Origin: Promethearchaeota archaeon
GTDB lineage: Archaea > Asgardarchaeota > Hermodarchaeia > Hermodarchaeales > Hermodarchaeaceae
Direction: 5' to 3'
NCBI GenBank assembly: GCA_048938385.1
Contig: JBHLMG010000012.1
Span: forward strand, 1 to 64,000
Length of the DNA: 64,000 nt
Shown here: piece after piece, positions 52,681-64,000 of the stretch
Numbering within the stretch: position 1 is the stretch's first letter
Layout: each line of letters starts with the position of its first letter
Notes under the pieces: model-generated
Database searches by the model: none
Seen by the model: only the letters and a program-made list of their open reading frames with translations
Told to the model about the DNA's origin: nothing
Made by a program: the position numbers and the translations under genes

Positions 52681-54150
52681 TCATTCTGCATAGCGTTTAA
52701 TTCCCTTCAACCGGCAGACTTCATGTACAATCATCTCTAGGATCTTATCATCACTTTTTATACCGGGTGGTGAATCAACGATTTTACTCAGTTGGAGAGG
52801 AATCCCATCCATCCGGTAAGCGGTTTGTATACCATCGGCTTCAATTCCCACATACGATGATGGTAACGCAACATCTGCAATTTCTGTGGTCGCACACCGC
52901 TTTGGGTCGAGAACAATGACGGGTATCTTCATCATGTGTTTTACTGCGGCGGATGGGAATGAAGCTGCTGGGTCTGCAGCAATTGCAAAGACAGCGTCAG
53001 CCTCACCGCGCACTAGAATGTCTACAGCGCTTGTTTCTCCTGGCATATAGTAGGGAGCACCATGTTCTAGACTCACCGAAAAGGGATATCCGTAAGTCCA
53101 TGTGGAAACATGGTTAGAACCTGTCACATTAAAGTGACCACGCATTGGCATAATCACGGCTTTAGTGTAATGGTTCAAATCAGCGGTTAAATCAATAGCT
53201 GCAATAACATTGTGGTCTTTACCGTGGGTTTGGGTTAACCCAAGCCCAAAGAAAATCGTAGTAAATTGTGCGTTCTTCAAATCAGCAACAAACTCTCGGA
53301 TTTGGCGCATAGGTACTCCCGCTACTTCCGACGCTTGTAGTTCCTTGCCTCGAAGAAGGGCTCGTACTGCTTGGAGTAGCTCATAATCTTTGTTAGGTTC
53401 AACAATAATGGAATTTGTTACCTGGTCTGTAAACCGAGTCGGTCGCACATCGATGTGGTAAACTTTTCGATCTTCTACTTGACGGAACAAACCTTCAATG
53501 AATTGAGAATACCGACGCGTATGGCGTGGGTGTGCAGCAATTGGGTTGCACCCCCAATAGACGATCATATCGGAGTAGTTCTTGATTTTTCCCAGCGTGC
53601 ATGTTCCGATACCAACCCGCTGAACCGCTTCGATTCCAGGTCCATGGCATACTGATGATGTATTATCCACAACTGCACCTGATACTTCTGCGAGTTCAAG
53701 GGCTCTTACATTAGCCTCATTTGAAGTGCTTGCTAAACCGTAAATCAATGGCCGTTTAGCCTGGGCAAGTATTTTTGCTGCGGTCTTCACAGCTTCCTCT
53801 AGGGAAACTTGCTTGACCTCAGATTTATTCGGACCCGTTCGGAGTTCAGGTTTATAGATTCGGTATTCATCACGCACTTTCAAGAACTTCGTATGACCAA
53901 TCCGACACGCGTTCAGCGCTTCAACAATAGTACCTTCTGGAACTCGAGGTAGGGGACCAGTCATAGTAACCGCTACTTCGATGTCATCACACAGGCAGCC
54001 GCTATGGCTGTGTACACTATTTAGTGTCCACACATGCCACGGCTAGACAGGATGTCTATACCTGAATGGGCAGATGACATGCTTGATGACACGAGCTCGC
54101 GGAGTCGATAGGATCCCATCAGCGTCGCCTCGATGTGCATTGGAGTCCAT
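52681..54150 (-). CDS. fwdB: Formylmethanofuran dehydrogenase subunit B, split: join(54150..54064, 54034, 54002..52681), 469 aa after splicing
   Basis: Exon 1 ends VIKHVICPF; the downstream part has GCLCDDIEV, NACRIG, SSVCHGP, WGCNP..AHPRH, MRGHFNV, TAYRMDG; RBS GGGAG before the ATG at 54150. Confidence 0.92.
54003..54033 (-). other. BHB-type mRNA intron B (31 nt) in fwdB
   Basis: Outer helix UAGCCG/CGGCUG, central helix UGGC/GCCA, bulges AU^G and UA^G, intron stem UGUG-G-ACACU/AGUGU-A-CACA. Confidence 0.85.
54035..54063 (-). other. BHB-type mRNA intron A (29 nt) in fwdB
   Basis: Central helix CCAU/GUGG, bulges UC^A and CA^U, intron stem GGU(A)UAGACA/UGUCUAGCC; contains an in-frame UAG. Confidence 0.82.
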
Positions 54151-63388: not shown

Positions 63389-64000
63389 ATGAGAAACGAG
63401 ATTCAACGAGTTGGAGTTGCCTCCGCAGAGCCCAAGGGCTGGGAAACTAGTCAAGTGGTCAACGAAATCCAACGGCGTGGAGTTGAATGCGTCGTCTTTG
63501 ATGTTACCCAAACCGTAGTCCGAGTGGGTGGAAAGTACCCCCGGGTGCAGTTCAAGAAAGAGGATTTAACCACACTTGATGGGGTCTTTACCCGTGCGGT
63601 CCCAGGCGGGTCTCTTGAACAGGTAATCTTGCGAATGGATACGCTGCATTGCTTAGAAAAGCTTGGCATTCCATTTATGAATCGGCCCCACTCCATCGAA
63701 AAGGCTGTGGACAAATACTATACTTTACGATTACTTGAACTAGGAGGGATTCCTGTTCCTCGAACCTGTGTGGCACAATACGCCCGAGATGCTCATCGGG
63801 CTTTTCGTCGGTTCAAGGATGTCGTGGTGAAACCTCTATTCGGCTCAGGGGGCGTAGGGATGACGCGAGTTAGCGACCCAGAAATTGCTCGTCGTGTATT
63901 TCGAAACCTCGAAGCAAACCGCTATGTGATTTATGTCCAAGAATATCTCGAACATGGTACTCGGGATATTCGTGTTTTTGTTATTGGAGGTAAGGCTGTA
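63389..64000 (+). CDS. RimK-family ATP-grasp ligase (MptN/CofF-like), runs off the window end
   Basis: Manual translation: MRNEIQRVGV..RAVPGGSLEQVILRMD..DKYYT..GIPVPRT..VVKPLFGSGG..YVQEYL..DIRVFVIGG; missing from the ORF track because it has no stop in the window. Confidence 0.85.
   Translation, partial: MRNEIQRVGVASAEPKGWETSQVVNEIQRRGVECVVFDVTQTVVRVGGKYPRVQFKKEDLTTLDGVFTRAVPGGSLEQVILRMDTLHCLEKLGIPFMNRPHSIEKAVDKYYTLRLLELGGIPVPRTCVAQYARDAHRAFRRFKDVVVKPLFGSGGVGMTRVSDPEIARRVFRNLEANRYVIYVQEYLEHGTRDIRVFVIGGKAV

Follow-up and report, generated by a model that had tools for sequence, protein, structure and literature searches.

The fwdB gene described here, from an Asgard (Hermodarchaeota) archaeon and on the minus strand of a 64 000-nt stretch of DNA (the window), is best explained as giving rise to a pre-mRNA with a bulge-helix-bulge (BHB) 'twintron', a reading that we hold to be likely: two introns of tRNA type, A and B, would be spliced out by proteins, in the productive order B, then A. 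What is new is an interlocked pair of introns with a one-nucleotide exon lying inside a codon of a protein gene. The observation itself goes back to a sequence-only reading of the same DNA; it is confirmed, and the core interpretation of ordered splicing is supported in silico.

The gene comprises five segments, the introns being candidates:

54064..54150, minus strand: fwdB exon 1, with ATG at 54150; 29 codons (MDSN...VICPF), 3' end ...CUGC CCAU UC.
54035..54063, minus strand: intron A (29 nt); it contains an in-frame UAG, and its inner hairpin has 3+6 bp.
54034, minus strand: the one-nucleotide exon U, first base of the second Cys codon UGC.
54003..54033, minus strand: intron B (31 nt); its inner hairpin has 4+5 bp.
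52681..54002, minus strand: fwdB exon 3, starting GC GGC UGC (GCGGCUGC...) and ending at the stop codon.

Exon 1 matches the N-termini of intronless congeners and provides the CxxCxxxC motif with its first Cys. Exon 3, even when taken by itself, reaches 503 bits with TIGR03129 (formylmethanofuran dehydrogenase subunit B, FwdB), and its product displays 88-91% amino-acid identity to congeners. Joining exon 1, U and exon 3 yields a 470-aa protein reading ...VICPFCGCLCDDIEV..., and double excision keeping U is the only one that restores the CPFCGCLCDD iron-sulfur motif. The same genome encodes a distant FwdB-like paralogue with 28% identity (contig C48, 61373-62614, minus strand), similar to distant paralogues present in nearly all relatives; it is no substitute for the intron-bearing ortholog.

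The boundaries of the insert are fixed by comparison with homologues. The survey took in 29 relatives together with 80 loci from genome contigs and 80 from metagenomes. An N-terminal match was obtained for 187 loci, representing 165 distinct sequences of which 17 are close relatives, and every one of these loci was intronless at the site, where intronless relatives read TGY CCN TTY TGY GGN TG; two distant loci (L023 and L027) that have no N-terminal match stand outside the 187. The insert is absent from all 12 congeneric species with this fwdB ortholog, from 4 genomes of the same family and from more distant relatives. A second intron-bearing strain, 96% identical, was found in a mangrove metagenome of a different study (run X6). 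It has both introns, and its 621-nt contig spans 53618-54233 without gaps and with four substitutions in the insert:

54011 T>G, 54013 T>G, 54030 A>T and 54036 G>A, given as plus-strand letters: substitutions of the variant strain.

The presence of a gap-free insert in an independent contig shows that it is not an assembly artefact. It had been predicted that relatives would show no intron, A only or both introns, and never B only: the first and third states were recovered (165 distinct sequences and 2 strains, respectively), B-only was not found, and neither was A-only. In the contigs of four metagenome runs, two of them low-depth with gaps, there was no allele lacking one or both introns, nor any joint. 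The two intron-bearing strains diverge at 19 exon positions, of which 17 are synonymous and 2 non-synonymous, a pattern that indicates purifying selection on a frame predicted to exist only after splicing, and hence a gene that is alive.

Both introns display a 4-bp central helix between two 3-nt bulges on opposite strands, which is the defining architecture of a BHB, and both also take the strict hBHBh' form with outer exonic and inner intronic helices, A acquiring its full outer helix after the removal of B. The base pairs of both folds were checked by script, and all the pairs named in the sequence-only reading are present. The elements are the following (a hyphen within a bulge marks the position after its second base):

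54045-54040 with 54001-53996, minus strand: outer helix of B, UAGCCG/CGGCUG, 6 bp.
54039-54036 with 54008-54005, minus strand: central helix of B, UGGC/GCCA.
AU-G and UA-G, minus strand: bulges of B.
53996..54008, minus strand: 3' half of B's BHB, with the GCCA central helix, the UA-G bulge and the CGGCUG outer helix.
54069-54066 with 54040-54037, minus strand: central helix of A, CCAU/GUGG.
UC-A and CA-U, minus strand: bulges of A.
54066..54073, minus strand: 5' half of A's BHB, with the CUGC outer helix and the CCAU central helix, then the UC-A bulge.
C:G, G:U and U:G only (3 weak bp): outer helix of A in the primary transcript.
54073-54070 with 54002-53999, minus strand: outer helix of A once B is removed, CUGC/GCGG, 4 bp plus a clamp (see below).
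54035..54045, minus strand: shared segment UAGCCGUGGCA, with roles in both the intron A and the intron B folds.

In the B fold the shared segment furnishes the outer helix, the central helix and the first bulge base, in agreement with the earlier proposal that the 3' end of A supplies these parts of B's motif; in the A fold it furnishes the inner-stem base, the central helix and the 3' bulge. Since nucleotides 54036-54045 are used in both, the two folds cannot coexist, and the mutual exclusivity proposed in that reading is thereby borne out. A cut after the second bulge base restores CPFCGCLCDD as it is found in the 165 distinct homologous sequences.

For the real insert, a scanner for the strict hBHBh' form (outer helix, bulge, central helix, bulge, inner helix) returned a single solution, in which B (31 nt) leaves before A (29 nt); it found no A-then-B and no single-intron solution there, and shuffling the 61-nt insert 300 000 times gave no solution of any kind. 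Loose BHB-like matches turn up frequently (about 12 in 171 nt), and a genome-wide screen for strict BHBs that fuse open reading frames (outer and inner helices of at least 3 bp, at least 80 open codons on each side) produced 37 132 motifs and 269 fusions, none of them convincing among those inspected. Because BHB-like matches are common, whether loose or strict, the significance of the pair rests on its coincidence with boundaries fixed by homologues, and two exact BHBs at such boundaries are not expected by chance.

The genome encodes the enzymes that splicing of this type would call upon, namely two EndA subunits (107 and 67 bits against PF01974) and an RtcB ligase (579 bits). The EndA alpha subunit (186 aa) has a Y-x9-H motif with a downstream Lys and is closest to the catalytic subunit of the Aeropyrum pernix heterotetramer (3P1Z_B, 3AJV_B), and its stretch aligned with the loop region of 3P1Z_B resembles the Crenarchaea-specific loop (CSL). 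The second EndA-family subunit (204 aa) has, by eye, no His at the position of the alpha Y-x9-H motif. Two further genes carry candidate introns, which the genome-wide screen missed, being too strict, and which were found by motif search. The dnaG intron (28 nt, contig C23, 180501-180528, minus strand) has an inner stem of 9 bp and an outer helix of 1 bp, and a cut after its second bulge base restores FGQTEGLLGEDL / FGQTEGLLGEDLDLRELQ; the cbf5 intron (41 nt, contig C4, 12651-12691, plus strand) has an inner stem of 5 bp and an outer helix of 0 bp, and splicing by the same second-bulge-base rule restores GIINLDKPPGPTSHEV. If these introns are spliced, the EndA of this genome appears to accept relaxed motifs and to need no outer helix, in which case any A fold arising in the primary transcript could be cut.

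Elsewhere in the genome, contig C22 has at 63801-63831 on its plus strand a very strong motif of BHB shape, 31 nt long, with 8 bp in its outer and 7 bp in its inner helix, just after an acyl-CoA-dehydrogenase-like C-terminus (...EGTNQIQRMV...); it may represent an mRNA intron, belong to an unannotated RNA gene or be a chance match. The tRNA genes of Asgard archaea are heavily interrupted (bioRxiv 10.64898/2026.10.13.758758). ARAGORN, run on the whole genome, reported only 31 tRNA genes, 18 with an intron call, some of these calls being implausibly long (1.6-2 kb), and many tRNAs have probably been missed by it through non-canonical or multiple introns.

In the proposed pathway, intron B would interrupt A's motif at the point where the third base of the 3' bulge meets the outer helix, with its own 5' half-motif built from the last 11 nt of A. 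The (alpha-beta)2 endonuclease EndA would bind the more stable B fold and cut after the second base of each bulge, after which RtcB would ligate ...GGCAU to GCGG.... With GCGG now adjoining the bulge, A's canonical BHB, extended by an exon-exon clamp of ~17 bp, would come to dominate and be cut in its turn, and a final RtcB ligation of ...UUC to UGCGG... would re-create the Cys codon of the [4Fe-4S] motif. The folds being mutually exclusive, the cuts flanking the lone U would never be simultaneous on one molecule, and the one-nucleotide exon would therefore never be released as a free nucleotide. The clamp has two arms:

54074..54090, minus strand: arm in exon 1, forming ~13 further bp with 53983-53998 in the minimum-energy fold after B removal.
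53983..53998, minus strand: arm in exon 3, pairing with 54074-54090.

The clamp as a whole (~17 bp) joins 54070-54090 to 53983-54002 on the minus strand. The 30 nt flanking the junction on either side form a duplex of -21.9 kcal/mol; in 16 intronless relatives, which lack the clamp, the values range from -5.6 to -15.3. The distal arm, GUCAUCA/UGAUGAC, covers lineage-specific residues (V-I, where congeners have I-T). Either the exons changed adaptively so as to keep the splice sites together, or the site was permissive because its flanks were already complementary.

The case for an order of removal comes from what each excision does to the other motif. As the sequence-only reading had it, removal of B completes the outer helix of A, CUGC/GCGG replacing the weak C:G, G:U and U:G pairs, while removal of A first leaves CAUU opposite GCCA, an arrangement for which no BHB with B's sites was found, so that 31 nt are retained and the frame is shifted. 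An A-first RNA being a dead end, B before A is obligatory for function, and on these folding models B-then-A is predicted to be the only productive order, obligatory for a functional product. The earlier claim of an obligatory order thus stands in so far as no other order yields FwdB in silico; that splicing happens at all, and that the cell enforces this order by avoiding the wrong one, is what we infer.

The computed energetics point the same way for this genome. In the primary transcript the minimum-energy fold is a non-BHB one and both BHB folds are minor species, with ensemble populations of 0.8% for B's BHB and, for A's, of 3e-5 in the relaxed form and 7e-7 with the adjacent weak outer helix (the strict form); this amounts to a preference for B of ~260-fold or more at 37 °C and of 1,000-2,000-fold at 20 °C. 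In the B-spliced RNA, A's BHB is the minimum-energy fold, with a population of 0.43. As in nested introns, then, A's BHB is dominant only after B removal, and B's BHB is impossible after A removal. Taken in isolation, the B motif has an energy of -21.6 kcal/mol and the A motif one of -8.4 before and -13.6 kcal/mol after B removal, B's being 13 kcal/mol more stable than A's. The weak UGC/GUG helix, which had been put forward as the block on A, is probably not one: the outer helices of the dnaG and cbf5 introns measure 1 and 0 bp, and if those introns are spliced, a weak outer helix is not what protects A. In these models A is probably disfavoured instead by competition with the more stable B fold.

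The variant strain bears directly on how secure this preference is. One of its substitutions turns a C:G pair of B's central helix into U:G, keeping the helix, and changes a bulge base in A, while the other three lie in B's inner stem, one making a pair and two breaking one, the stem being kept. Together, the variant substitutions abolish a competing UG/CA register of B's stem and create a GUGA that stabilizes the relaxed A fold. That fold reaches a population of 2.2% in the variant strain, against 1.6% for B (about 1:1), with the canonical A fold staying ~60-fold lower. As modelled, the thermodynamic guarantee of the removal order is not conserved between the two strains.

Such findings would suit a different reading, which seems to us unlikely but deserves weighing, namely that both introns are genuine and spliced with their order unenforced, A-first RNAs being degraded and maturation being leaky or possibly tunable. 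Besides the near parity of the relaxed A fold and B in the variant strain, it would be consistent with the relaxed outer helices of the other mRNA introns of this genome, with the (alpha-beta)2, CSL-type architecture of its EndA, which belongs to a broad-specificity class (PMC5829648), and with the fact that A's motif is transcribed before the 3' half of B's. However, the advantage of B in this genome, both in population and in the energy of the isolated motif, is difficult to reconcile with a free choice, and the loss of half the transcripts would be costly for the gene of a core enzyme.

It has also to be asked whether the insert is removed at all. It could be retained, either in a recent pseudogene or in a gene expressed unspliced by read-through of the UAG or from an internal GTG at 54033, and there is indeed a stretch of 60 nt between TTC and AGC that is in frame with a single TAG, as well as a 450-aa ORF starting from this GTG. 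Nevertheless, read-through would swap the second cluster Cys for Ser and add 20 residues, with no PylS above cut-off to favour a pyrrolysine, and the internal start would drop two cluster cysteines from a motif that is intact in all 165 distinct homologous sequences. The 17:2 ratio of synonymous to non-synonymous differences speaks against a pseudogene, and two exact BHBs at the comparative boundaries would have to be coincidental, which makes retention very improbable. A single-step excision, with one cut at the 5' site of A and the other at the 3' site of B, is hardly credible: although a single exon-exon helix encloses both introns in the minimum-energy fold of the primary transcript, 61 nt would be removed with loss of U and a shifted frame, the required central helices cannot coexist, the strict scanner finds no single-intron BHB and a 60-nt in-frame deletion gives Ser, not Cys.

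Candidates of other kinds were rejected. A ribosomal bypass like that of T4 gene 60 lacks matching take-off and landing codons and would still leave the Cys codon absent. For a self-splicing group II/III twintron, the introns measure 29 and 31 nt and Rfam gives nothing above threshold; a CRISPR-repeat match in Rfam is sub-threshold and on the opposite strand, and is taken as chance.

As regards the origin of the twintron, the comparative record is that of a pair recently gained and, as sampled, confined to one species-level lineage. Neither intron has a paralogous copy in its own genome beyond chance 10-13-mers, and neither the exact nor the degenerate patterns of A and B matched in 185 579 species genomes. 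B's motif needs the sequence of A, while A's needs only A and the exons; B being dependent on A and not vice versa, arrival of A and then B, or of both jointly, is parsimonious, and it is plausible that B was gained after A. The further suggestion that B was gained at a site cleaved by EndA is not supported as worded, B lying 1 nt downstream of A's 3' cleavage site rather than at it. A single 60-nt insertion would account for the DNA only with an extra substitution, and it would form no BHB.

The closest known systems are the nested multi-intron pre-tRNAs of Crenarchaeota/Thermoproteales, in which, as summarized in reviews (PMC3978253, PMC3728597, on Sugahara 2007 and Tocchini-Valentini 2009), the last BHB forms only once the others have been removed. 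The likeness to ordered removal in archaeal pre-tRNAs drawn in the sequence-only reading is therefore well founded, nested introns being documented there (PMC3978253): in both cases several BHB introns share one RNA, one interrupting the motif of another, with EndA and a ligase as the enzymes. From the pre-tRNAs as the reviews describe them, fwdB differs in three respects. The substrate is the coding mRNA of FwdB (TIGR03129), a different class of RNA; the dependence is two-way, B borrowing the 3' end of A; and the intervening exon consists of one nucleotide that belongs to a codon. In the searchable literature, ordered removal of nested BHB introns is known only in tRNAs.

The EndA-spliced mRNAs documented in archaea are, in the searchable literature, only cbf5 and HVO_1309 (PMC10485636). 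The former is the BHB intron of the crenarchaeal cbf5 pre-mRNA (Watanabe 2002; Yoshinari 2006; Yokobori 2009, PMC2738675), the latter an EndA-type mRNA intron of Haloferax (PMC7714728; PMC10485636). Like them, fwdB would have an EndA-type intron inside an archaeal mRNA, associated with a heterotetrameric (alpha-beta)2 endonuclease, whereas theirs are single introns and fwdB has an order-dependent pair, in a metabolic gene of an Asgard archaeon and in one species-level lineage. In pre-tRNAs of Cyanidioschyzon merolae, the order of BHB removal follows the free energy of the motifs, the more stable leaving first (PMC3728597). B ahead of A in fwdB (-21.6 and -8.4 kcal/mol) fits this stability rule, but the motifs of C. 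merolae fold independently, whereas those of fwdB compete for shared nucleotides, and removal in the wrong order leads to a dead end. In the group II/III twintrons of Euglena chloroplasts, an intron that interrupts the functional structure of another must leave first. The same is proposed for fwdB, where the interrupting intron would be excised first; the Euglena twintrons, however, are self-splicing ribozymes, while fwdB would depend on a protein endonuclease and a ligase and has no ribozyme structure. On balance, we lean towards regarding fwdB as the first BHB twintron in a protein-coding mRNA, with mutually dependent introns, a one-nucleotide exon, splicing forced into two rounds and exons remodelled into a clamp.

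The fwdB pair would extend the logic of ordered nested introns to mRNAs, in a gene of core C1 metabolism of an Asgard archaeon. It would offer a natural substrate for the question of how RNA refolding gates successive rounds of EndA and RtcB, and a snapshot of a second intron colonizing the splicing motif of a first. On a practical level, gene callers will mis-annotate such intron-bearing genes as truncated. If the proposed twintron is real, ordered, structure-gated and protein-dependent mRNA splicing would be evolving now in the closest prokaryotic relatives of eukaryotes.
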